A stretch of 64,000 nt of DNA, from contig CBDEVD010000005.1 in the NCBI GenBank assembly GCA_965243645.1, positions 23,258 to 87,257 of the forward strand. The letters are read 5' to 3'. Position 1 is the first letter of the stretch. The number at the start of each line of letters is the position of its first letter. Shown here piece after piece: positions 2,079 through 16,737 of this stretch. Under the pieces are notes generated by a model. That model did not search any database, was not told where the DNA came from, and saw only the letters and a program-made list of their open reading frames with translations. The DNA comes from Arenicellales bacterium. Its GTDB lineage: Bacteria; Pseudomonadota; Gammaproteobacteria; Arenicellales; JAJDZL01. The position numbers were made by a program, and so were the translations under genes.

Positions 2079-2260
2079 GGGACTTATAGACCTTACTTGA
2101 CAAAATCAAGTAAATGCATACTCTCTTGACGGATCATCGAGGTTACCTAGGTAATCGCCTCTCCCACGTCCAATCGCCCGAGTCCCCAAGGCTTTAATAT
2201 TCAATGCAGCATTCACATCTGCATTGTCCGAATGATCACAGACCACACACCGGAATACCG
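2079..2260 (-). ncRNA. Putative TnpB omega (right-end) RNA region; extent is a guess
   Basis: By analogy with characterised TnpB systems, where the guide RNA scaffold overlaps the 3' end of tnpB and ends at the element's right end. Only the hairpin at 2093-2113 is actually visible. Confidence 0.25.
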
Positions 2261-3329
2261 CCTGACTCCGGCGATTGTCTGCATCAATGTGTCCACACGT
2301 ATGACACCGGCGACTGGTATTGATCGCACTGACTTCTATCACTTCAGTTTTATATGCCAGCTTCTGCTTCAATCCATACCAGCCGGTGTTCAATATCTCG
2401 CGATTCAATCCCGACTTGGCCGCTACATTCACTCCGGGTTCTTCGACTGTGCCTTTGGCTGATTTTGTCATCCCTTGGGTGCTTAAATCCTCTACCACTG
2501 CATACTGATAATCATTGGCAATGGCTCGGGATTCCTGGTGATGCCAGTTCGAACGAATGTGCTTGATCTTACGTGAGGCTTTCTTCGCGCGTTTGCGGGT
2601 TTTCAAATACCGGTTCGAGGGCTTGATCCCCTGTTTGTGAATCGGTCTTTGCTGACGCGCCATCCGGCGCTGATAACGGTTGCGCTTCGCTTCAAGTGTC
2701 TTGACATCCGGTAAGTGTCTGATCTCACCCTCACTGGTTGCAAACTGACCCACATTCATGTCAATGCCAACAGCTCTACCGTTATCTGTTACTTGAATCA
2801 ATTCCTCACTGACTTCATAACACACGGTTGCATAATACTTGTCTTCTTCCCGTTTGATCACCACTTGCTTGGTGTTACAACCGTCGTAGGGATTGGAACC
2901 GCTCAACACCACCTGACCGATTCTTTGCAAATGTAGACTGGTACCGCTTAGTTTAAAAGAACCTTCCGGAAATGTGACTGAATCATCGTGGTAGATTTTG
3001 GACTTGAACTTGGGATAGCCTTTCTTGGATTTGAAAAACTGCTGCCAGGCATCAGCTTGATATTTTAGTGCGTAGCGTATGGGGGCATACGGCAGTGTCT
3101 TGAGCCATTCGGTTTGCTTGCGCAGTTCGGTGAAACATTTACCGAGAGAGAAGAAACTTGTTTCAGGACGCGGCAAGGACTGATCATCCTCATGGGCGCG
3201 CATCATTTGCTGGTTGATACCAAGGAAGTGATTCCACACAAAGCGGGTGGCACCCAGGCACTGGTTGAGTAAATTGGCCTTGGTGCGGGTCAGTGGATAC
3301 AGGCGATAACGAATGTTTCGGTGAGGCAT
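2106..3329 (-). CDS. tnpB: TnpB (OrfB) RNA-guided endonuclease-family protein
   Basis: 407 aa. RuvC-like segments (AVGIDMNVG..., YAVVEDLS..., [11 protein letters not shown]) and a zinc ribbon CHTCGH...FRCVVCDH near the C-terminus. Typical OrfB_IS605 layout. Confidence 0.85.
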
Positions 3330-3733
3330 GGATATATAACCGATCTTATAGGATTGTATTATATATCATTGTTATTATGTTTATTATTAATGTTGTCAAC
3401 TTATCTATATAGTGCGCCGTGGAAAGGTGCTTGTCTCTAGTGGGTGCGAATCCCACCCAACAGTTGTCGTTGTCGGTTGGTAGCGACTGAAACGGATCAT
3501 GGAGGTAACGACATGGTTTGAAGCATTTCAGATAGAAGGGTTGCGTAAGGCAACTCAGCGACCATACGGGCCAGAACGCGAGTGAACGTTGAGCAGGCCT
3601 CGAAAATAGTAATGCGGAAGCTGATTCTGTCTATATTCAGAAGAAAGCCGGTGGCATCTTGGGAAGTAAGCGACATCAGCACTGAGATGTTTCCGCCGGG
3701 GTATTGACGCTGGCTGTAGGTAACGGTTGAATC

Positions 3734-3765
3734 TCCCCACTATGTTGCCCACTACATAGTGGGGA
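3734..3765. repeat. 32-nt 12-8-12 palindromic junction site of RIT element 1 (TCCCCACTATGT tgcccact ACATAGTGGGGA)
   Basis: Read directly. The outer 6 nt (TCCCCA) belong to IS21 repeat L1. The same hexamer ends the opposite IR at 7184-7189. Confidence 0.85.
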
Positions 3766-3798
3766 CTATCTCGCCAACCGAACTATGTAGCGTAGTTT
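3760..3798. repeat. RIT1 terminal inverted repeat, left copy
   Basis: TGGGGACTATCTCGCCAACCGAACTATGTAGCGTAGTTT is the exact reverse complement of 7151-7189. Confidence 0.95.
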
Positions 3799-3878
3799 CT
3801 GAAGGCAACGTTATCATGTTGAAAAGAAATAATAATAGTGTACGAATTTTCGAACAACGCTACATAGTATTTCTACGC

Positions 3879-4889
3879 TCACAAGCTGTCGAGAAACTTC
3901 ATCAGTTGATCATCTGCGGTAAAGCGCGTTGGTTTTTGCGAAAGTGGCGTCACTTTGGCGAGTGCCTGAATTTTCATCTCCATCGTCGCTTCTACGTAGA
4001 TCTGAGTAGTTTCAACATGCTCGTGCCCTAACCACAATGCAATGGTTGACCGGTCTACGCCACCTTGCAACAACTCCATTGCCGCGGTGTGCCGCAATAG
4101 GTGGACGCTGAGTTGTTTAATTGCGAGTGTAGGGCATTGTATGGCTGCCTTTTTTTGATGTTTTTTCAACATGTACTGAACACCGTGGATCGTTAACGAG
4201 TCACCGCGAAAATTTGGAAACAATTGCTTAGAGTTTCCACGGTCCGGTTCCCGCATCCAGCGGGTCAGCACTGAACGAGTGGATTTTGCCAGCGGTGTAC
4301 AACGTTGCTTACGTCCTTTACCGAAAACCCGCAAGTGAGAACTTTCACCCAAAATGACATCTTCGCGCTTCAGTGCGGTCATCTCCGATACCCGAAGCCC
4401 AGTTTGTACTGCCGTGAGAATAAAGGCGTGATCGCGCCGCCCAATCCACGTACTGCGCACGGGAGCGTTCAGCAACGCGACCACCTCTTCCCGGCGAAGA
4501 AAGCCAATTTGTTTGTGCACAAAACGTTTGGCCGGAATAGCCAGCACTTTTTGAATTTGTACTGAATGTTCGGGGAACGTCTGCTCAAATGCGTAGCGGA
4601 AAAACGACTGAATTGCAGTCAATCTCAGATTTCGGGTGCGGATACTGACCTTACGGGCAGTTTCCAGATCATCAAGAAACGCTGAGATTAAAGTTTCATC
4701 AAGCTGATTGAACAGTAACTTGGAAGGTTCCTGTCCCAAGTATTTGGCTGCAAAATCGAACAGTTGTCGAAATGTATCGCGATATGACTTGACCGTATGA
4801 TGGCTTGCTTGACGTTGGTTGGTCAGGCGTTGAAAAAAGTACTGCTTGATCAGAACGGTCAATTCATTGGGGGTGGTGTGAGGATTCAT
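3879..4889 (-). CDS. ritC: Tyrosine recombinase, third gene of trio 1
   Basis: Phage-integrase fold motifs (...GLRVSE..., HLLRHTAAMELL, LGHEHVETTQIYVE). The ATG at 4889 overlaps the upstream stop (ATGA). The ORF track's longer start at 4904 is less likely. Confidence 0.85.
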   Translation of the reverse strand: MNPHTTPNELTVLIKQYFFQRLTNQRQASHHTVKSYRDTFRQLFDFAAKYLGQEPSKLLFNQLDETLISAFLDDLETARKVSIRTRNLRLTAIQSFFRYAFEQTFPEHSVQIQKVLAIPAKRFVHKQIGFLRREEVVALLNAPVRSTWIGRRDHAFILTAVQTGLRVSEMTALKREDVILGESSHLRVFGKGRKQRCTPLAKSTRSVLTRWMREPDRGNSKQLFPNFRGDSLTIHGVQYMLKKHQKKAAIQCPTLAIKQLSVHLLRHTAAMELLQGGVDRSTIALWLGHEHVETTQIYVEATMEMKIQALAKVTPLSQKPTRFTADDQLMKFLDSL

Positions 4890-5830
4890 AACACACCTTC
4901 CCAACGACGTTCGAGTTTTCGCATGGCCTGTGACATCAACCCAGGATTACTTTCCAGATACCAGTAGGTATTGCCAATGCGCACATGGCCCAGGTAGGCC
5001 GAAAGCACGGGCAATATCTTTTCCGGATCGGCATCGCTGCGATAACAATTCTCCAGAGCTCTGACTGCGAAGCGGTGTCTGAAATCTTGCAGACGTGGTC
5101 CATGGGAATCATGCGTTTTGCGCAGACCAGACTGGATTGTCAAAGCGCGGAAAGTGTCTTGTACCAGCCCTTTGGATAATCGTGTGCCGTTGCGCGTTAC
5201 AAACAACTGTTCGGCCACTGGGTGGCCGCACCAATATTGTGCCCGCCGCTGTATATACTCCTCAAGCGCTGTACAGGTCGACTCATGGATTGGAACAAGA
5301 CGCGTACGATCGTATTTTTCCGCATGAACTGTGATCAATGCACGATTTAAATCGACATCCTTGAGTTTTAGTCCGCAGGCCTCACCGGGCCGCATTCCTG
5401 TAACGCACAGCAATCCAATCAAACAATAGTAGGTCCATGGACGCAATGCATCATGTCGTGTTCGACAAGGCATATTTTGTGCGCTCTGCATCAAGATGCA
5501 CACTTCTTCTTCCGTGTACAGATATGGTTTCGGTCGACTACGCTTTGCCGACAGTACATGGAAAGCAGGAATTTCGGTTCTTGGATCAGCAATTTGTCGA
5601 TAACGCGCAAATTCTCGTACCATGCCAAGACGGGCAACCGCCCAAGCAGGCTTTGCTTCGCCCGGCAACTGCGCCCATTTGACCGCCCATGCTTCGGTGA
5701 TATACGATTGCTTGTGCTGCTCGAGATACATGACAAATTGCGTCAAATACCGTTCTGCATCAGACAGTTTAAATCCGAGGCTACGTCTGAGGTTCACGTA
5801 ATCGTGAACCGCCTGTTTCATTGTATTCAT
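4886..5830 (-). CDS. ritB: Tyrosine recombinase, second gene of trio 1
   Basis: GMRPGEAC..., FRHRFAVRAL, LGHVRIGNTYWYLE. The ATG at 5830 overlaps the ritA stop by 1 nt (TGATG). Confidence 0.85.
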   Translation of the reverse strand: MNTMKQAVHDYVNLRRSLGFKLSDAERYLTQFVMYLEQHKQSYITEAWAVKWAQLPGEAKPAWAVARLGMVREFARYRQIADPRTEIPAFHVLSAKRSRPKPYLYTEEEVCILMQSAQNMPCRTRHDALRPWTYYCLIGLLCVTGMRPGEACGLKLKDVDLNRALITVHAEKYDRTRLVPIHESTCTALEEYIQRRAQYWCGHPVAEQLFVTRNGTRLSKGLVQDTFRALTIQSGLRKTHDSHGPRLQDFRHRFAVRALENCYRSDADPEKILPVLSAYLGHVRIGNTYWYLESNPGLMSQAMRKLERRWEGVL

Positions 5831-7059
5831 CAGCTTACTCCCGGCCACCGCAGTGTCAAACCACGCAGTGCATCAATATCGACCTTGGTGTAAATATGCG
5901 TGCTCTCAAGGTCGCGGTGGCTGAGCAAGTTTCCAATCTGTTCCAGTGAGGCACCTTGGCTCAACATTGTGGTGGCAACCGCATGTCGTAATTGATGGCT
6001 CCCGCGGGTTGGCGCATCGATGCCAGCGCGCTGGATTTGACGACTGACCAGGCTGCAAACACCGACTGAAGTTTTAAATCCGTCGTATGGCGCATTGACA
6101 CGCAAAAACACGCGTCGGCTGTGACTTTTCGGACGCGCATTTTGCAGATAATCAACCATCGAATCACCGATTTGTTGGGTTAACGGATAGCGACTTTGAC
6201 GCCCACTTTTTAACGTTACGGTCAGCGTTGAAGTGCTCCAGTCAATATCATCAAGTGTCAAGAATGCCACCTCGCAAGCACGTAATCCCAACCGTGCGAG
6301 CAACAAAATGATTGCGTAGTCTCGCTTTCCGGTCGCCGTAGTGCAGTCAACGCTGTCCAATAGCTTTTCCACCTGTTCGGATGCCATTGCGCGCGGCAAC
6401 GATTGCTGTGACCAGCCCGCCACCGAAGGTACTTGAGAGATTGTTTCAGTCAGTTTTCCGGTTTGACGATTCACATAGCGCAGAAACGAACGTAATGCAA
6501 CGGCAATAGCTTGTACGCTTGCAACTTGATTCAATAGTTTGGCTTTATGACGCAAATAACTAATCACGCCTTCGGTGCATAATGAATCAAAATCCACAGC
6601 TTCATTGCCAAATTGATAATGGAGGAATTCTCGAACGACTGCGCGATAACACCGAATGGTGCCTCCGGCCAGATTCCTTTGTACTCGCAAATACTGCGCA
6701 TACTGCGCAACACAATGGTCCACCGATGACAAGACTTGAACTGTGCAAGTCAAAGCTGGAAGTCCTTCCGATTGTAAATAGATGGATAAATGCCCAATCG
6801 CATTGCGTGCATGCGTTCGCACGATGCCTTTCTTGGTTTCCAAATAGCGTTCGGTCTGTTCTTCCGAAAATGTGTCGAGTCCAATTTGCTGCTCTGCCAA
6901 CCATTCGCTGAATCGGGCAACGTGACGCGATATGCAATAAACAGTTACCGGTGCATACTGTTTTGCGCGTAATACCTCAGCAAATTGGGACAAATGTGAA
7001 GCGAACGGTCCAATTGCTGGCCGTCGAAACGTAATTTGATCATAATTCCGATTACTCAT
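5830..7059 (-). CDS. ritA: Tyrosine recombinase, first and largest gene of trio 1
   Basis: GLRACEV..., HQLRHAVATTML, LSHRDLESTHIYTKV. The ATG at 7059 is preceded by GGCAGGAGC. Confidence 0.85.
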   Translation of the reverse strand: MSNRNYDQITFRRPAIGPFASHLSQFAEVLRAKQYAPVTVYCISRHVARFSEWLAEQQIGLDTFSEEQTERYLETKKGIVRTHARNAIGHLSIYLQSEGLPALTCTVQVLSSVDHCVAQYAQYLRVQRNLAGGTIRCYRAVVREFLHYQFGNEAVDFDSLCTEGVISYLRHKAKLLNQVASVQAIAVALRSFLRYVNRQTGKLTETISQVPSVAGWSQQSLPRAMASEQVEKLLDSVDCTTATGKRDYAIILLLARLGLRACEVAFLTLDDIDWSTSTLTVTLKSGRQSRYPLTQQIGDSMVDYLQNARPKSHSRRVFLRVNAPYDGFKTSVGVCSLVSRQIQRAGIDAPTRGSHQLRHAVATTMLSQGASLEQIGNLLSHRDLESTHIYTKVDIDALRGLTLRWPGVS

Positions 7060-7150
7060 AATATAGCTCCTGCCCATAAACGGGCTGTGATTGAAGCCTA
7101 TACTATGTCGTCATCGATTTGATTTTTTACAATTAAATTAGGATGTTAAT

Positions 7151-7189
7151 AAACTACGCTACATAGTTCGGTTGGCGAGATAGTCCCCA
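7151..7189. repeat. RIT1 terminal inverted repeat, right copy
   Basis: Exact reverse complement of 3760-3798. Confidence 0.95.
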
Positions 7190-7228
7190 ATATAAACGGT
7201 TGAAATTCCCCAGTTGTGGGAACAAAGG

Positions 7229-7264
7229 TTTGCCTTCCTGCCTTTTAAAAGGCAGGAAGGCAAA
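7229..7264. repeat. 36-bp perfect loop-less palindrome (TTTGCCTTCCTGCCTTTT/AAAAGGCAGGAAGGCAAA) between the IS21 left-end repeats and istA
   Basis: Read directly. It may be a read-through insulator or terminator-like hairpin of the IS. Confidence 0.8.
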
Positions 7265-7320
7265 ATCGATAATTTTGCTCTATGGTTCGGGTTTTCCACA
7301 CCTCAACCTAGAACACAACC

Positions 7321-9389
<2,069 letters not shown>

Positions 9390-10026
9390 CGCGCTCCTTG
9401 GGCTCAAGCGCAAACTGAAATGTTGACACAATTGAATGTCGAACAATTTAAAAATAATAATCTCAGGAGGCTCTGATCTACAATAACGGCTGATCACCGA
9501 TTCACCCGAAAGTGGGGATTTTCAATCGCGACTTTTGGGGATTTTGAGACCGTTACCTACACTGGCACGTGTGGAAGAGGAGAGAGGTGGCAACACGGGA
9601 AGCCCTGGCAGTGGTGAAGCACACACCAAACTGGTAATCCGCGAGGACTGGACTGGGCTGTCAGGGTGGGTACGCCAGGCTAACTGGCATAAGGGTAGTC
9701 GGTGAAAGTCCGATGGATAGTAAATGTTAACCACATGCTGTCGCCGCGAGCCGTGCGCTGATACTCGTGAGGGTATTGGTGAAGTGTCGGTAGCGGTACG
9801 CATAGCCGCGATGATAGAGCATCGAAAAACAGGTCTTTTAGAGAGTCGAGACTTTTCACCCGGTCGAAGACAATATCGGCTGTACTGTAATGGTGAGGTA
9901 CATTTGATCTCTGCGGTGTCGAAGGAATCGATGGATGTGCGCATGCCCTATGTTGGGACCTGGGAGGGGTTTATCTTTCCTTGACGGTCGTGTCAAGGAC
10001 GCTGAAAGAAAGGAGGTATTCTGAAT

Positions 10027-11514
10027 TTGAAGATGAACGGGATAAACCAGTCGGATGCAGGCATAGTACTGATGACAGCGGCGAACAAAGAGGTGCAAGC
10101 CTTGGCGGAGTCGAACGAGGGAAGGGCTGCAACCAAAGGGAATCTGCAAAGCCAAAGCACGTGCCGCACACGGGGGCGGGAGAGCGTGTCACAGGCGGTG
10201 GAGCGGATACGGCAGGCTGTGAAGAGAAATCCGAAGGAGAAACTCACTGCGCTGTTGCACCATATATCGGTAGATACGCTTTGCTGGTCGTTTTACTCAT
10301 TGAAGAAGAACGCAGCGGCAGGTGTTGACGGTGTTGTATGGGAAGAGTACGAGCAGGAGTTGGACAGTCATTTGGCTGACCTGCACCGGCGCGTACATAC
10401 AGGTGCGTACCGGGCGCTGCCATCGCGGCGGGTGAATATCCCCAAAGCCGATGGTGGGACACGACCGCTCGGCATTGCTGCATTGGAGGACAAGATTGTC
10501 CAAAAGGCGGTGGTGGAGTTGATTCTTACGCCGATTTACGAGGCGGAGTTTCTTGGATTCAGTCATGGATTCCGGCCGGGACGGGGAGCGCATGATGCGC
10601 TCGATGTGCTGGCTTACGGAATCACGGAGCGCAAAGTCAACTGGATAGTAGACGCAGACATTCGTGCATTCTTTGATCGTATAGACAGAGACTGGCTGGT
10701 TCGGTTTCTGGAGCACCGTATCGGGGACAAGCGGGTGATTCGCCTGATTATCAAGTGGCTGAACGCTGGTGTAATGGAAAGTGGTAAATGGCAGGACGAC
10801 TTACGCGGAGTTCCACAAGGAGCGATTGTGAGCCCCGTTCTGGCTAACGTTTACCTACATTATGTGCTGGATTTGTGGTTTCACAAAAAGTGGAGGCCGA
10901 ATCAGGCACGGGGGCAGGCGATGATAGTTCGCTATGCGGATGACTTTGTGGTCTGTTTCCAATACCAACAGGACGCACAGCGGTTTGTGTGCGATCTGGA
11001 GAAACGACTAAGGGATTTTGCATTGGAGTTGCATCCTGACAAGACCCGCATGATCGAGTTTGGGCGTTTTGCTTGGCAAGACCGCACGGCTCGTGGTGAG
11101 GGTCGTCCTGAGACGTTTGACTTTCTGGGTTTTACGCACTATTGTCGTAAAACAAGAAAAGGCAAATTTGGGCTGGGACGTAAACCGATTGCAAAACGGG
11201 TTAACCGCACACTTAATCGGATTAAGGCTGAGTTGCGGCGGCGGATGCACCATGATGTGTATGAAGTTGCCCGCTGGCTGGGACAAGTGCTGCGTGGCTG
11301 GTTAGGCTACTATGCTGTACCCACCAGTGGACCGTCCCTGAATTCTTTCGTTCACTGCATCAAAGCAATTTGGCTGAGAGTTCTGCGTCGACGGTCTCAA
11401 AAAGACCGTTTCTGCGGTATCCGTCTCGACCAGATTGTTCAAACGTGCTGGCCGCCTGTGAAGATATTACACCCATGGCCGGATCAACGGTTTGCCGTCA
11501 AACACCTAAGGTAG
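10027..11514 (+). CDS. Group II intron reverse transcriptase/maturase (intron 1)
   Basis: RT motifs AAGVDG, PKADGGTRPLGI, VPQGAIVSPVLANVYL, RYADDFVV, and the X/maturase region LRGWLGYY. No obvious HNH domain. Confidence 0.9.
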   Translation: MKMNGINQSDAGIVLMTAANKEVQALAESNEGRAATKGNLQSQSTCRTRGRESVSQAVERIRQAVKRNPKEKLTALLHHISVDTLCWSFYSLKKNAAAGVDGVVWEEYEQELDSHLADLHRRVHTGAYRALPSRRVNIPKADGGTRPLGIAALEDKIVQKAVVELILTPIYEAEFLGFSHGFRPGRGAHDALDVLAYGITERKVNWIVDADIRAFFDRIDRDWLVRFLEHRIGDKRVIRLIIKWLNAGVMESGKWQDDLRGVPQGAIVSPVLANVYLHYVLDLWFHKKWRPNQARGQAMIVRYADDFVVCFQYQQDAQRFVCDLEKRLRDFALELHPDKTRMIEFGRFAWQDRTARGEGRPETFDFLGFTHYCRKTRKGKFGLGRKPIAKRVNRTLNRIKAELRRRMHHDVYEVARWLGQVLRGWLGYYAVPTSGPSLNSFVHCIKAIWLRVLRRRSQKDRFCGIRLDQIVQTCWPPVKILHPWPDQRFAVKHLR

Positions 11515-11547
11515 GAGCCGTATGCGTTAGCGCGCACGTACGGATTC
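11515..11547 (+). ncRNA. Group II intron domain V (intron 1)
   Basis: GAGCCGTATGCGTTAGCGCGCACGTACGGATTC. AGC triad, two-part helix, starts right after the RT stop. Confidence 0.8.
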
Positions 11548-11677
11548 TGTGCGGGGGGAAGGCAGTAATGCTTTTCCCTACCGCGACCGGAGAGGTTCGT
11601 AGTACCGGAGAAGTCGGGTAATGCCGATGGAGGGAAGGGACCTTGATTCGGAAGCAGTATGTAAAGGCAGAAAGGAC

Positions 11678-12400
11678 ATGACAACTGACGAAAGTCTAAC
11701 AGGGTCAGATAAGGTTCAGAGACTACGGCGCATACTACATGCCAAAGCGAAGGCAGAACCGAAGTTAAGATTTCATGCGTTGTATGACAAGGTGTGGCGG
11801 ATGGATTTTCTCACCGAAGCGTACCGGCAGGTGCGCCGCAACGGCGGTGCTGCCGGTGTGGACGGGGAGACGTTCGCGAACATTGAGGCATACGGGGTTG
11901 AGAGCTGGCTTGGGGAACTGGCGCGGGAACTTAAAGACAAGACCTATATACCCGGAGCGGTGCGACAGGTCTTGATTCCAAAGAAGCAAAAGGGCAAGTT
12001 TCGCCCACTGGGCATTCCTTGCTTGCGAGACCGGGTGGTTCAGACCTCGGCGATGTTAGTTTTAACACCGATCTTTGAGGCTGATCTCGGTGAGGAGCAA
12101 TATGCCTATCGGGCGGGCAGGAGTGCGCACGATGCGGTCAATCGTATTCATGCGCTCCTGAACACGGGACACAATGAAGTGGTGGATGCTGATTTATCCA
12201 ATTATTTCGGTGAGATTCCCCATGCTGAGTTGATGAAGAGTTTAGCCCGTCGCATCAGCGATGGTGCGATGCTCAGATTGATCAAGTCATGGTTGGAGAT
12301 GCCGGTCGAAGAGGATAATGGCAAGGGCGGCAAACGCTGCACGAACCAGGCGAAGAAGTGGCGTAAGGGCAGCCCACAGGGTTCGCCCATATCGCCGCTG
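11678..12400 (+). pseudogene. Group II intron RT (intron 2), N-terminal fragment
   Basis: GAAGVDGETF, PKKQKGKFRPLGIP, SPQGSPISPL, then the reading frame runs into RIT2 sequence. Confidence 0.85.
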
Positions 12401-12426
12401 TTATGGGAACTTTCCCATAACAGCGG
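12395..12426. repeat. 32-nt 12-8-12 palindromic junction site of RIT element 2 (CCGCTGTTATGG gaactttc CCATAACAGCGG)
   Basis: Read directly. The outer 6 nt (CCGCTG) are RT2 codons Pro-Leu. The same hexamer ends the opposite IR at 16114-16119. Confidence 0.85.
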
Positions 12427-12511
12427 TAATGGGAACCTTATGATTATGGGAACCTAGACTATCCTGATCTTTGATTATCAATGGTATAGGCTAGAATCAG
12501 GTTCCCATAAG
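12421..12511. repeat. RIT2 terminal inverted repeat, left copy (contains TATGGGAAC sub-repeats)
   Basis: Exact reverse complement of 16029-16119, checked base by base. Confidence 0.95.
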
Positions 12512-12522
12512 ATTATTTCACT

Positions 12523-13515
12523 TCAGACCTCTGCGAGCATAGCAAGCAACTCATCCTGAACTCCTTTGAACTTGCCTTTGCGTAGACTCACGGGTCGCCA
12601 CTTCTCGAGTGTATTCAACTTATCAGCCGGGTCCGATCGAAGATACATCTCGGTAGTCTGGATACTCGAGTGTCCCAACCACGCTGAGACTTTTCTAACG
12701 TCTCCGGTTGCTTCAAGAGTGTGAAGCGCGCAAGCATGCCTCAAAAGATGGGGCGTTACAGTCTTTTTTGCAATGGATGGTACATTTTGTGCCGCAGTTT
12801 GCGCATGTACGACAAGACGTTTTGCAAAACCGCGTCGAGTCATCCCTGTGCCCATGGAATTTAAGAAAAAATGTCGGTCGTTACTGTCATGTCGAACAGC
12901 CAGCCAGTCGCGCAGAGCACCGCGGGTGTCCGTCCAAAGCGGTTGAATACGTTGCCGTCGACCTTTACCCAAAATATGCACCTCATCAAGAGCTGGCATC
13001 TTCAGATCATCAAGCGCAAGCCCAACCAACTCCGAAACACGCAGGCCAGCGTTGTAGGTCAAGTACAGCATTGCCCGGTCCCGAATCCCAGTCGTAGTTT
13101 TCGGATTCGGCGCATTCAGCAGCGCACGCACTTCCTTGCGATCCAAAGAGCCAATGAGTGGTACGATGCCCTTCTTTATGGGGATTTCACGAACTTGTCC
13201 AGCAAGCGCAAGATACGCTGGATTGCGGAACTCGAGAAACCGAAAAAAAGCCTTGATCGCCGCGAGCCGAGCATTGCGTGTATTGACACTGTTGCCTCGC
13301 TCTGTTTCGAGATGCTCAAGAAACTTGAGAATGGTTTCAACATTCAGGTGCCCGATCTCAAGCTCACAGGGTCGGGCACCGTGTAGATTGGCAGTAAAAA
13401 CGATCAACAGCTTAAAGCAAAGAGCATAGCTTTCTACGGTATGCCGACTCGTACCTTTGTCGCGTGGCAGGTATTCGCGCAAAAACTTTTCAAGTGAACA
13501 GGCAAGGTTACTCAT
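12523..13515 (-). CDS. ritC: Tyrosine recombinase, third gene of trio 2
   Basis: GLRVSELV..., HLLRHACALHTL, LGHSSIQTTEMYL. The ATG at 13515 overlaps the ritB stop (ATGAGTAA). The 393-aa ORF-track version starts implausibly far upstream. Confidence 0.85.
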   Translation of the reverse strand: MSNLACSLEKFLREYLPRDKGTSRHTVESYALCFKLLIVFTANLHGARPCELEIGHLNVETILKFLEHLETERGNSVNTRNARLAAIKAFFRFLEFRNPAYLALAGQVREIPIKKGIVPLIGSLDRKEVRALLNAPNPKTTTGIRDRAMLYLTYNAGLRVSELVGLALDDLKMPALDEVHILGKGRRQRIQPLWTDTRGALRDWLAVRHDSNDRHFFLNSMGTGMTRRGFAKRLVVHAQTAAQNVPSIAKKTVTPHLLRHACALHTLEATGDVRKVSAWLGHSSIQTTEMYLRSDPADKLNTLEKWRPVSLRKGKFKGVQDELLAMLAEV

Positions 13516-14434
13516 TACACCCTCCCTGCCGATACAACCGTTCGGTTTGTTCAGAGATCTGTCGCAGCAACACCGGCGTTGCTTCAAGGTACCAATACGT
13601 GCCTGCAGCATTGGAATGTCCCAGATAAGTCGACAGTGCCAGCATGTGACGCCCCACATCTTCACGATCATTGGACAGCATGTTCTCGAGCGAACGAGTT
13701 GCAAACCCGTGCCTCAAATCGTGAAGACGCGTTCCCGGTTCGCCTGTCCCAGCTCGAAGACCACACTGTCGGGCCAATTTGACAAACACGGTGGACAGAT
13801 AGACCGGACGCATCGGTCGACCAGTCGACAGTACAAACAGGTGTTCGCTGGGTCCGCCGAGTCGCTTCCTGTCTCGTAGGTATTCATCCATCGCTTGATG
13901 AACACTATCGCTCAACGGCACCAGACGGGACTTGCCGAACTTCGTGTTTCTGATCAACAGTCCATCTTCTGTCAAGTCTTTCAGCAACAGATTGGCTGCT
14001 TCCGATCGACGTAATCCGGTCGCAGCGATTAGACCCACGATGTAATGGAAAGTCAATGGCGTGATTGAGCCTGCTGGCCCCAATTGCAATGCCGCGTCCA
14101 TGATCTGCGTGACCTCTGCCAGTGACAGCAAACAGGGTGTTGGCCGTCGTGAGATGGTTTTACCCAAAGCAGTGCGATCCGGGACTTCATGGCGTTCATC
14201 GTCGGCGTGCAAAACGCAAGCCAGGTCGCAAACATAGCCCAGTTTGCTCTGCCTCTGCCGGGAAGACGGTGTATTCGATAACCAATTAAATACAGTACTG
14301 CAACGCACGAACTGGTCGCCACAATCCATGGCGTAAGTCGCATAATCGTTCAACACACGCGCCTGTTGATCATACTTGTATCCGAGGGCTTTTCTGAAAC
14401 TGACATAATCATTGACCTTTTCTAAGAGTGTCAT
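13508..14434 (-). CDS. ritB: Tyrosine recombinase, second gene of trio 2
   Basis: GLRRSEAA..., LHDLRHGFATRSL, LGHSNAAGTYWYLE. The ATG at 14434 overlaps the ritA stop (ATGA). Confidence 0.85.
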   Translation of the reverse strand: MTLLEKVNDYVSFRKALGYKYDQQARVLNDYATYAMDCGDQFVRCSTVFNWLSNTPSSRQRQSKLGYVCDLACVLHADDERHEVPDRTALGKTISRRPTPCLLSLAEVTQIMDAALQLGPAGSITPLTFHYIVGLIAATGLRRSEAANLLLKDLTEDGLLIRNTKFGKSRLVPLSDSVHQAMDEYLRDRKRLGGPSEHLFVLSTGRPMRPVYLSTVFVKLARQCGLRAGTGEPGTRLHDLRHGFATRSLENMLSNDREDVGRHMLALSTYLGHSNAAGTYWYLEATPVLLRQISEQTERLYRQGGCNE

Positions 14435-15981
14435 TGCAGACCTCCTGCGGTCGGCCAAGGCTGGGCAACATCACGAAGCATTCGGATATCGACCCTTGCA
14501 TAAACGGCTGTAGTTGTCATTGATTGATGGCGCAGCAGAGCACTGATCACTTCGAGTGGCGTATGGTCATGTAGCAAGTTCGTTGCTGCAGAATGTCTAA
14601 ATAGATGCGCGGCAGGCAGCCCGTCGGCTTTGATACCGACGCGCTTGATCGCCGCTCCTGCGACGGCGGAAACGCCACCGCTTGACAGTGCTTGATCAAT
14701 TGGTGGGGGCATGCGTAAGAATACCTTTTCAGTCGCGGAAACAAGTCTGGCATGCACGATGTAATTTCTGAGCGCGTCGCCGACATCCTGCGGCAGAGGC
14801 AACGCTGCCGCACACCGCGACTTGCCGCTGACGCGGACCAGTGCATTGTCCCAATCGATGTCTTGCAACTCAAGGTTAGCCACATCTCCGGCACGCAGGG
14901 CGAGTCTGGCCAGAAGCAACAAAATGGCGCGGTCTCTGATCCCCATCGCAGTTGTCAGATCGCACGATGCAATAATGCGTTCGATATCTTCCTGCGGCAA
15001 ATGACGAGGCAATGTCGAGAATCTTTGCCTCGGAATCATGGGAACCGCAGCAGCCAGTCCCGGGCGGCAAAGACCATTTAATGTGAGAAAACGCAGATAC
15101 TGTCGAAATGCTGAGACTTGACGGCGGACCAGTTCACGCGACGCGGTCTCAAGGCGGCGTTGGACAGCAGTTCTGATGAGTGTGGCACTGTACCGATCAG
15201 GTTCATCACCCAGATGAACAATAAACAATTCAACAGCCTTGCGGTAGCTTTGTACAGTTTTCTCCTGAATATTGCGGTAGTTACGTAGCCAGTTCTGATA
15301 TTGCGCCAGGTATTGTCCTGTCTCCTCGGATGTTGGACACACGCGCGGCGAAACGATGCCTGTGTCTCTGAGATACTTAATGAATACCCGGATTTTGATA
15401 TGACTGTTGTCACAACCCGAAAATCTATTGCCTCTGATAAAAAAATGCGGATGCACACAGGTGCACTGATGCGAAAGAAACTGAGTTAAAGTATCGTCAC
15501 TGATTTTGACTAATTTGATGTCTTGTAGATAAAGCCAGACAATCAAGTGCCGGCAACGCTTGCGGTACGCGACAACCGAATCTTGCACATACCCTTTTGC
15601 CGCAAGTGTTTTCAAAAACGACTCCACCGCGTGGCTGTCAATCTCAATCTGCTCGGGCAACCGGGCTACTCCTGCCTCCATTAAAAAGCCGAGGAACTGG
15701 TGCAACTGCCAATTCATACGTTGTAAGTTCTTGCGATAACCGTGCGGACCGGGGCAAGTACAGTCGTGATTGAGGAATTGATCTAAGACACGAATGTCGA
15801 GCAACTCGATCGGAATCCCTTTTGCTGACAACCATGTCATCAGGTGAATGACGACTCGGACACACTTGGCAAGGAAGCTTTCGCAATATCCCATCGCCTG
15901 CAAGTGTGCTTTGTAATTGTGAACAATATCCAACTCGCATCCGTCTGCGCGTTGTATTGCATTGATGACCTTCGAAGGCAT
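14431..15981 (-). CDS. ritA: Tyrosine recombinase, first and largest gene of trio 2
   Basis: ALRAGDV..., HLFRHSAATNLL, LRHQSMTTTAVYARV. The ATG at 15981 is preceded by AGGAGA. Confidence 0.85.
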   Translation of the reverse strand: MPSKVINAIQRADGCELDIVHNYKAHLQAMGYCESFLAKCVRVVIHLMTWLSAKGIPIELLDIRVLDQFLNHDCTCPGPHGYRKNLQRMNWQLHQFLGFLMEAGVARLPEQIEIDSHAVESFLKTLAAKGYVQDSVVAYRKRCRHLIVWLYLQDIKLVKISDDTLTQFLSHQCTCVHPHFFIRGNRFSGCDNSHIKIRVFIKYLRDTGIVSPRVCPTSEETGQYLAQYQNWLRNYRNIQEKTVQSYRKAVELFIVHLGDEPDRYSATLIRTAVQRRLETASRELVRRQVSAFRQYLRFLTLNGLCRPGLAAAVPMIPRQRFSTLPRHLPQEDIERIIASCDLTTAMGIRDRAILLLLARLALRAGDVANLELQDIDWDNALVRVSGKSRCAAALPLPQDVGDALRNYIVHARLVSATEKVFLRMPPPIDQALSSGGVSAVAGAAIKRVGIKADGLPAAHLFRHSAATNLLHDHTPLEVISALLRHQSMTTTAVYARVDIRMLRDVAQPWPTAGGLQ

Positions 15982-16028
15982 GCTGATTCTCCTGTTTAGG
16001 GTTAAACCCCCAAAGGATACCAGCAATT

Positions 16029-16119
16029 CTTATGGGAACCTGATTCTAGCCTATACCATTGATAATCAAAGATCAGGATAGTCTAGGTTCCCATAATCAT
16101 AAGGTTCCCATTACCGCTG
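16029..16119. repeat. RIT2 terminal inverted repeat, right copy
   Basis: Exact reverse complement of 12421-12511. Confidence 0.95.
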
Positions 16120-16737
16120 CTCAGTTCCGTCTACATGCGACGGTTCATTGTCGGTTGGAAACATCTGGGCTTGGCTCACAGATTCCAGTCCCACATTGTC
16201 AATTACGCAGATGACATCTGCATCCTGGGTAAAGCACCGGCGGCGCAAATGCAGTCAGCCTTTACGCGGATAATGGCGCAGCTGAAATTGCCAGTGAATG
16301 TGGACAAGACCCGGTGTTTAAGGTGTCCGGAGGCGGCTTTGGAGTTCTTGGGTTATCGGATCGGAATGAACTATCGGTATGACGGAACAGGGGCCTATAT
16401 CGGTACCCGTCCGAGCAAGTCGAGCATTCAGCTGATCTGCCGTAAAGTGAGTGAGCAGACCGCAAGTCGATACGGGTTTCTGGACGATGATGAGATGGTT
16501 AGGCGTTTGAACTGGATGTTGTCTGGTTGGGCGAATTACTTTCATTTGGGACAGGTATCCCCGGCTTATGCGGCGGTCGATGCGCACACCAGAAAACGGC
16601 TGCGTCAGTGGCTGTGTCGGAAACACAAGGTGAAAAGTGGGAAATATGTGCGCTTTTCCATTGCGAAGTTGTATGATTCATACGGCCTGGTTCACCTTGC
16701 GTCTACCACCACGAGCCTGCCGTGGGCGAAGGTATGA
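16120..16737 (+). pseudogene. Group II intron RT/maturase (intron 2), C-terminal fragment
   Basis: LSSVYMRRFIVGW..., NYADDICILG, LSGWANYF, ending ...TSLPWAKV (a typical maturase tail). Confidence 0.85.

Follow-up and report, generated by a model that had tools for sequence, protein, structure and literature searches.

We analysed a 64,000-nt stretch of DNA from an Arenicellales bacterium (assembly GCA_965243645.1, contig CBDEVD010000005.1, positions 23,258 to 87,257; hereafter the window), in which two RIT elements, RIT1 and RIT2, lie between positions 3734 and 16119. RIT (recombinase in trio) elements were reportedly described in 2009, and published surveys have placed them in many phyla. 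The original prediction, made from the letters of the window, pointed to a common architecture at their ends: a host hexamer, a 20-nt segment and an inverted repeat (IR) follow one another, and the same hexamer terminates the far IR. The strings and coordinates proposed for these junctions were all found to be correct. The features are as follows, where H is the outer hexamer, H' the hexamer that opens the IR, and a1 and a2 are 10-nt arms.

3715–9561, + strand: target of RIT1, an IS21-family element with istA (7321–8565), istB (8562–9389) and terminal repeats L1, L2 / R2, R1
3734–3739, + strand: RIT1 H, TCCCCA, the final 6 nt of IS21 repeat L1; putative crossover (overlap) sequence
3740–3759, + strand: RIT1 20-nt module CTATGTTGCCCACTACATAG, 10-nt arms back to back, CTATGTTGCC + CACTACATAG
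3760–3803, + strand: RIT1 ritC-proximal IR, opening with H' TGGGGA (3760–3765)
3766–3775: RIT1 arm a1 CTATCTCGCC, within the ritC-proximal IR
3783–3792: RIT1 arm a2 CTATGTAGCG, 17 nt inward of a1
about 3853–3868: RIT1 inverted arm copy, deeper inside the element than a2
3879–7077, − strand: RIT1 rit trio, with ritA 7077/7059–5830, ritB 5830–4886 and ritC 4889–3879
7146–7189, + strand: RIT1 ritA-proximal IR, ending in arm GGCGAGATAG (7174–7183) and hexamer TCCCCA (7184–7189)
11621–16737, + strand: target of RIT2, a group II intron reverse transcriptase (RT)/maturase open reading frame (ORF), split into halves 11621–12400 and 16120–16737
12395–12400, + strand: RIT2 H, CCGCTG, Pro-Leu codons of the interrupted RT
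12401–12420, + strand: RIT2 20-nt module TTATGGGAACTTTCCCATAA, arms TTATGGGAAC + TTTCCCATAA
12421–12512, + strand: RIT2 ritC-proximal IR, 92 nt, perfect, with H' CAGCGG (12421–12426), a1 (12427–12436) and a2 (12444–12453)
about 12500–12509: RIT2 inverted arm, within the ritC-proximal IR
12523–16026, − strand: RIT2 rit trio, with ritA 15981–14431, ritB 14434–13508 and ritC 13515–12523
16028–16119, + strand: RIT2 ritA-proximal IR, ending in arm GTTCCCATTA and hexamer CCGCTG (16114–16119)

The two elements and their insertion sites

Both trios consist of tyrosine-recombinase genes on the same strand, in the order A-B-C, with overlaps of 4–8 nt at the likely starts. All six proteins match PF00589 and the C-terminal motif is present in both trios; the RIT1 ORFs are intact and each keeps H...T..Y at its C-terminus, and the three overlapping genes of RIT2 are likewise intact. 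The Rit proteins are Xer-like, with best scores against XerC/XerD models. The RIT subfamily is recognized by a RitA with an extra N-terminal core-binding (CB) domain and by a RitB with no SAM-like Pfam match (PMC8138268). Both signatures are found in the window proteins: RIT1 RitA has SAM-like matches at residues 29–80 and 124–205, and in a profile search RIT1 RitB matched PF00589 alone. RitB homologues were found in thousands; RIT1 RitB shares 52% identity with the product of the central gene in a Cupriavidus pHG1 RIT trio, and the two window RitB proteins only about 33% with each other. Between the IRs of the window elements there is no fourth ORF, only the three Xer-like recombinases, and profile searches detected no DDE or HUH enzyme encoded by them. 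With an ordered trio, homology of the pHG1/CH34 type and long terminal IRs (about 44 nt in RIT1), both are RIT elements.

Both also interrupt other mobile elements, with intact genes and perfect IRs. In the RIT2 target, the RVT_1 profile is matched at positions 1–134 upstream of the insertion and at positions 142–205, followed by GIIM (maturase domain), downstream of it; joining 12400 to 16120 restores the RT reading frame (GSPISPL/LSSVYM), for which one CCGCTG suffices. The right end of the IS21 element reads R2-5 nt-R1-ACCTAC, and the left end mirrors it as GTAGGT-L1-5 nt-L2 only when 3740–7189 is removed. The empty sites are expected to read ...AATCTCCCCAATATAAACGG... for the IS21 element (RIT1) and ...ATATCGCCGCTGCTCAGTTCC... 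for the RT gene (RIT2). An exact empty site exists for a related element of a Bradyrhizobium plasmid (L003): on another plasmid, the L003 flanks are joined via a single ACCTGC in an intact copy of IS66 (L135), with no module and 0 mismatches over 42 nt. Finally, the first and last 6 nt of a 3378-nt metagenome contig (L125) are the outer and far hexamers (both TGAGCG), with no flanking DNA. The L135 empty site, the restored RT frame, the symmetry of the IS21 ends and the L125 boundaries together show, by sequence comparison, that the 20 nt are DNA of the element and not of the host, as the original prediction had assumed.

L125 could represent several copies collapsed into one unit, or a circle whose assembly relied on the 6-nt hexamer overlap alone; in a circular-overlap check of element-sized contigs it was the only notable case (6-nt overlap equal to the hexamer). 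No near-identical empty sites for two other elements (L001 and L004) were found in plasmids.

The layout of RIT ends

A megablast of RIT1 and RIT2 against plasmids gave zero matches, and neither the window RitB proteins nor their nearest cluster representatives were found in the contig index. As no further copies of RIT1 and RIT2 themselves were at hand, related families were used for comparison. RIT loci were collected from plasmids, from one RitB-alignment scan of species-representative genomes and from contigs that encode selected RitB proteins. After locating the IRs, an automatic parser scored each offset outside them for a palindromic 10-mer pair resembling the 10-mer 6 nt further in; with shuffled flanks as the null, the false-positive rate was 0.2% per side. 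In what follows, counts over 59 refer to evaluable loci and counts over 35 to distinct elements or modules.

A module was present on exactly one side in 41/59 loci, from plasmids, genomes and metagenomes, and in all 41 the palindrome centre lay 6–16 nt outside the detected IR edge, most commonly 10 nt. The 'negative' loci were mostly misdetected IRs, degenerate copies or members of a Rhizobiales family with a 19-nt module, a version seen in at least five further loci. Each half of the 20-mer is similar to the first IR arm: the outer arm of the module matches the IR arm at 8/10 positions in RIT1 (CTATCTCGCC) and at 9/10 in RIT2 (TAATGGGAAC), and 9/10 was also obtained for L007 and L083. In essentially all elements the first arm is followed, 17 nt further inward, by a second direct copy (6.5/8 matches compared with a background of 2.0, n=31), and an inverted copy lies about 73 nt in. 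The IRs are 100% identical over 92–98 nt within elements and yet differ between families. The general plan is host–H(6)–a(10)–a'(10)–H'(6)–a1–7 nt–a2…a3'–ritABC–mirror-image IR–H(6)–host.

A scan with free module and spacer lengths was ambiguous between (16,10), (18,8) and (20,6); because the outermost one or two arm positions are variable, these represent one register. The spacer was set at 6 nt from the extent of the flanking direct repeat and from the block that varies among otherwise identical copies. As a speculation, RitA, with its two SAM-like/core-binding domains, may span both of the 17-nt-spaced arms.

Matches to IR probes of RIT1 and RIT2 were confined to the element ends, and the two 32-mers formed by H, module and H' fold with z-scores of −6.2 and −9.4. 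Together with the recurrence of the layout in 41/59 independent loci, against 0.2% per side in shuffled flanks, these results exclude that the end layout of RIT1 and RIT2 arose by chance, and here the original prediction was right. The features of RIT1 and RIT2 are probably the normal ends of RIT transposons, laid out according to a family-wide plan.

The same 32-mers had been described as perfect palindromes with 12-nt arms and an 8-nt asymmetric centre, dimensions that resemble those of loxP and FRT, and had been proposed to act as lox-like core sites, with strand exchange in the 8-nt centre of the joined ends. The RIT1 palindrome is indeed a perfect 12-8-12, but that of RIT2 is 15-2-15, its supposed 8-nt centre GAACTTTC being self-complementary apart from the middle CT. 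The unpaired centre measures 0 nt in 14/35 and 2 nt in another 14/35, and reaches 8 nt in only 2/35, one of them RIT1. A perfectly symmetric centre would give no directionality, and an exchange in the centre would divide the 20-mer between the two ends, whereas the module is always found whole at one end, with the breakpoints at the hexamers. Judged from these comparisons, the palindrome lacks the size-conserved asymmetric 6–8-bp spacer that houses the crossover in loxP and FRT, and a lox-like use of it is very improbable.

Position of the module and behaviour of the hexamers

The 20-mer had been predicted to lie on the ritC side, which does not hold across the family: it adjoins ritA in 19/35 distinct elements and ritC in 16/35. 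The same element was even found at the same host site in both arrangements, in L007/8/12 versus L009/10 (IS3 transposase codons YLYL/VAVMD) and in L013/16 versus L014/15. In the latter set, the only asymmetry of the module, a central CA, has the same orientation relative to the rit genes in both arrangements. This is predicted by a circle opened at H or H', whereas inversion of the core alone would give TG. Two families back this conserved polarity, P0174 and a sphingomonad family (1 versus 3 mismatches in the latter), and we regard it as supported rather than settled.

Identical elements at identical sites, seen in both orientations within one metagenome, could also be expected if RIT elements were mostly stationary and the core and, separately, the 20-mer were flipped between inverted hexamer sites, the 6-nt direct repeats being relics of one old insertion. 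H/H' and H'/H do form inverted repeats around the 20-mer and around the core, and copies with a module at both ends (L089) or at neither (L002, L021, L087) would fit such an invertase system. It would nevertheless require two separate inversions to convert L013 into L014, and it does not account for the presence of one family at many sites with different hexamers, for the exact empty site L135, or for the insertion of both window elements, with their perfect IRs and intact genes, into other mobile elements. Inversion may occur too, but it leaves the spread of the elements unexplained, and we consider it an improbable account of RIT ends as a whole. L089 has its modules at 220 and 3672, between inverted IS66 fragments; this copy and the three module-less ones look like reciprocal recombination products of oppositely arranged RIT copies.

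Unlike the arms, the hexamers vary among copies. Among 25 metagenome copies of one family the arms were invariant, including at positions left free by the search, whereas nine alleles of H and six alleles of H' were observed; the variable blocks are exactly 6 nt long, as is the flanking direct repeat. In the P0072 family, at one conserved target, the alleles TGTCGG and TGCCGT and the hybrid TGCCGG assort among the three hexamer positions, and the right-flank allele follows the adjacent hexamer. The hybrid, found as the far-end hexamer of L102, would be the expected product of heteroduplex correction or of an exchange point inside a 6-bp overlap. RIT2-like elements in other hosts occupy the same RT motif, with CCGTTG in L097/98/100 and CCGCTG/CCACTG in L017; the hexamer of the element changes together with the RT codons at its target, being CCGCTG in RIT2 and CCGTTG in the P0129 family.

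The flank hexamer had been predicted to equal the hexamer of the far IR. This is usually the case: the two are identical in 21/35 and one base apart in 6/35, which gives at least 5/6 matches in 27/35, but they are non-identical in 14/35. H' is the exact reverse complement of H in 21/35, where 1 in 4096 is expected; in at least six elements (including L003, L005, L025 and L028) it is unrelated to H, and the internal hexamer is sometimes unrelated to both flanking hexamers. When the flanks are unequal and the target can be inferred, the module-less end retains the target hexamer and the module-side hexamer matches H' in L105, L017, L004 and four sphingomonad copies; the reverse pattern was observed in L099 and some others. 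Since both segregation patterns occur, either junction can inherit the hexamer of the target. A strict rule by which the module-side hexamer is the element-borne one was rejected on L099, L060, L072, L083 and L113.

The identical flanks of 21/35 elements, a target with a single-copy hexamer and the cases in which H' is unrelated to the flanks could also be produced by an ordinary 6-bp target-site duplication, made by staggered cleavage and repair, with the internal palindrome irrelevant to the chemistry. Such a process accounts neither for the complementarity of H' and H in 21/35, which excludes a simple target-site duplication, nor for L105 and L102, where the flanks differ at 3/6 positions, the surrounding target is identical and one flank matches H'. 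With tyrosine recombinases as the only enzymes, and no DDE or HUH transposase, there is hardly any room for this explanation. In conclusion, the hexamers are polymorphic and shuffle between positions; they appear to behave as 6-bp crossover (overlap) sequences that usually, though not always, match the target.

Target flanks resemble the arms weakly on the left (3.0 versus 2.4 of 10) and not at all on the right, and the idea that targets are pseudo-core sites was dropped for this reason. In one natural target, L099, the right flank after the hexamer (about 5514–5530), TTATCGAACG (codons LSN), is 7/10 like the arm of the element itself, TTATCGGAAC, and so mimics 'hexamer + arm'; no such mimicry was seen at the RIT2 target of the window or across the data set. 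RIT elements recur inside conserved coding motifs of other mobile elements (L003, L004, L007–L012, L035–L049, L062–L073, L089, L097–L100 and the window), namely the IS21 end repeats, the group II intron RT 'SPL/L', the IS3 transposase 'YLYL/VAVMD', the IS66 transposase ('IDNN' and 'LIETCK' regions), the IS91-type zinc-finger 'AYNSC' and the strawberry-notch gene of conjugative plasmids. Such sites may be genuinely preferred as targets, or they may be safe havens in which the elements survive and hitch-hike. The window begins with a 17-kb patchwork of mobile elements, in which an IS605 OrfB/TnpB-like ORF occupies positions 2106–3329 (− strand), immediately upstream of the IS21::RIT1 composite, with OrfB_IS605, Cas12f1-like TNB and helix-turn-helix (HTH) domains.

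Proposed joined ends and comparison with known systems

The most economical reading of these observations, and probably the correct one, is that RIT elements are tyrosine-recombinase transposons whose joined ends form two opposed core sites. The 10-mers would be the candidate recombinase-binding arms and the hexamers the 6-bp overlap regions of strand exchange. In a circle or synapse that brings the ends together, the 20-mer would furnish the missing arms, and the junction a1'-H-a a'-H'-a1 would constitute two complete 10-6-10 core sites, abutting and in opposite orientation. The predicted junctions are ...GGCGAGATAG TCCCCA CTATGTTGCCCACTACATAG TGGGGA CTATCTCGCC... for RIT1 and ...GTTCCCATTA CCGCTG TTATGGGAACTTTCCCATAA CAGCGG TAATGGGAAC... 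for RIT2. As the 20-mer is never split between the ends, the opening of the circle or synapse would lie 10 nt from the centre, at a hexamer. Integration would be a conservative crossover of either hexamer with a target hexamer, identity being preferred and not obligatory; the site used would determine whether the module ends up on the ritA or on the ritC side, and hexamers would travel from one insertion site to the next. The circular intermediate, the pairing of arms with proteins, and the order and number of strand exchanges are steps that we infer. The joining of the ends and conservative recombination with a target hexamer, as originally predicted, remain the simplest reading of the layout, but the exchange would not take place at a 12-8-12 site, nor would it demand identical hexamers. 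ritABC regions are enriched in exonuclease-resistant (circular) DNA, in a study in which the junction was not resolved (PMC5737581).

A joined end could also be used as a folded single strand, as are CTX attP(+) and integron attC. Its stem would be formed by pairing between the two IRs, between H and H' and between a and a', so that the tip of the hairpin would present one Xer-like 10-6-10 site; one strand would be exchanged with the target hexamer and replication would follow. Pairing in the stem, or repair, would keep the IRs perfect and H' complementary to H, and both properties are observed, the latter also for novel hexamers (TGAGCG/CGCTCA in L125, TGCGCG/CGCGCA in L134). For both window elements, the computed fold of the hypothetical joined ends is a near-perfect hairpin of about −32 kcal/mol; the recombinases of the trio are Xer-like; and among elements with unequal flanks the module-side hexamer is more often complementary to H' (about 9–11 versus 3–5 cases). 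This preference for one junction to keep the target hexamer is nevertheless not strict (L099, L060, L072, L083), and the elements in which H' is unrelated to H are at odds with pairing in the stem. The present data do not separate single- from double-stranded substrates. We consider the folded strand unlikely, though the best placed of the alternatives to two double-stranded core sites; if true, it would add a third, transposon-borne case to the two in which tyrosine recombinases act on hairpin substrates, integron attC and CTX phage.

Several observations weigh against the reading with two opposed core sites. In-situ inversion at the hexamers could likewise yield both arrangements of the module, and the pHG1 copies and the diverged pair L095/L096 lean, weakly, to the opposite polarity of the 20-mer centre, by one mismatch each. 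Flanking hexamers that differ at 3–5/6 positions, in L004, L038 and L041, are disfavoured under a homology-dependent crossover. When all fetched loci were searched for reconstructed sites, no empty site was found beside any occupied site in the same sample. The joined-end pattern (IR-H-20mer-H'-IR) of the GGGAAC-arm family was present in 0 metagenome contigs, in a collection that held only 25 matching integrated ends and in which long palindromes assemble badly. Finally, no biochemistry exists for any RIT element: transposition has never been reproduced and the target rule is given as "not tested" (PMC10214605), in agreement with the original statement that neither has been established experimentally.

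The plan fixes the exact RIT ends, the exchanged 6 bp, the candidate 10-mer binding sites and the expected joined-end junction, and it turns the movement of RIT elements from an open mechanistic question into a directly testable one. It also permits exact annotation of RIT boundaries, and accounts for RIT elements inside conserved genes of other mobile elements and for copies with modules at both ends or at neither. The end structure was not found described in the searchable literature; Ricker et al. 2013 (Plasmid) is outside that literature, so the anatomy may be partly in print.

In the Cre/loxP, FLP/FRT and XerCD/dif systems, inverted arms of about 10–13 bp flank a 6–8-bp overlap that houses the crossover. 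Each a'-H-a unit of a RIT end is built in this way, and XerC/XerD models give the Rit proteins their best scores. The RIT unit is however a 10-6-10 site on each hexamer, not a 12-8-12 site on the 20-mer, and the target shows little or no similarity to the arms (3.0/10 in the left flank, none in the right). In CTX attP(+) and attC, inverted half-sites fold into a recombinase core hairpin; the exchange involves one strand only, and the product is resolved by replication. The joined RIT ends would similarly be a near-perfect long palindrome, but their hairpins would be almost fully paired, without the defining extrahelical bases or bubbles.

The coupling sequences of Tn916 offer another likeness, as their 6-bp flanks need not match, pair as a heteroduplex in the joint and can afterwards go to either junction; the hybrid hexamer TGCCGG and both segregation patterns are the RIT counterparts. 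Tn916 differs in having one Int plus Xis and neither long IRs nor a palindromic double arm, and most RIT insertions have matched hexamers. The closest analogues of RIT elements are Tn554 and the SE elements, which leave 6 bp carried from the previous site at one junction and the 6 bp of the target at the other ("fingerprint/footprint"; PMC10214605). They too are driven by several tyrosine recombinases; in their joined form a 6-bp spacer lies between imperfect terminal inverted motifs, and the target is not truly duplicated. The hexamers of RIT elements show this behaviour as well, with 6 bp that travel and the 6 bp of the target kept at one junction. Compared with Tn554 and SE, RIT elements have three Xer-like recombinases, without a Tfp, Srap or TnpC partner, and long perfect IRs with repeated arms plus an extra 20-nt double arm; their joined ends would hold two opposed core sites, and the element is found opened at either, with a strand bias that, if any, is not strict. 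By their protein set, their long IRs, their double arm and their use of either site, RIT elements are distinguished from Tn554/SE and from Tn916.

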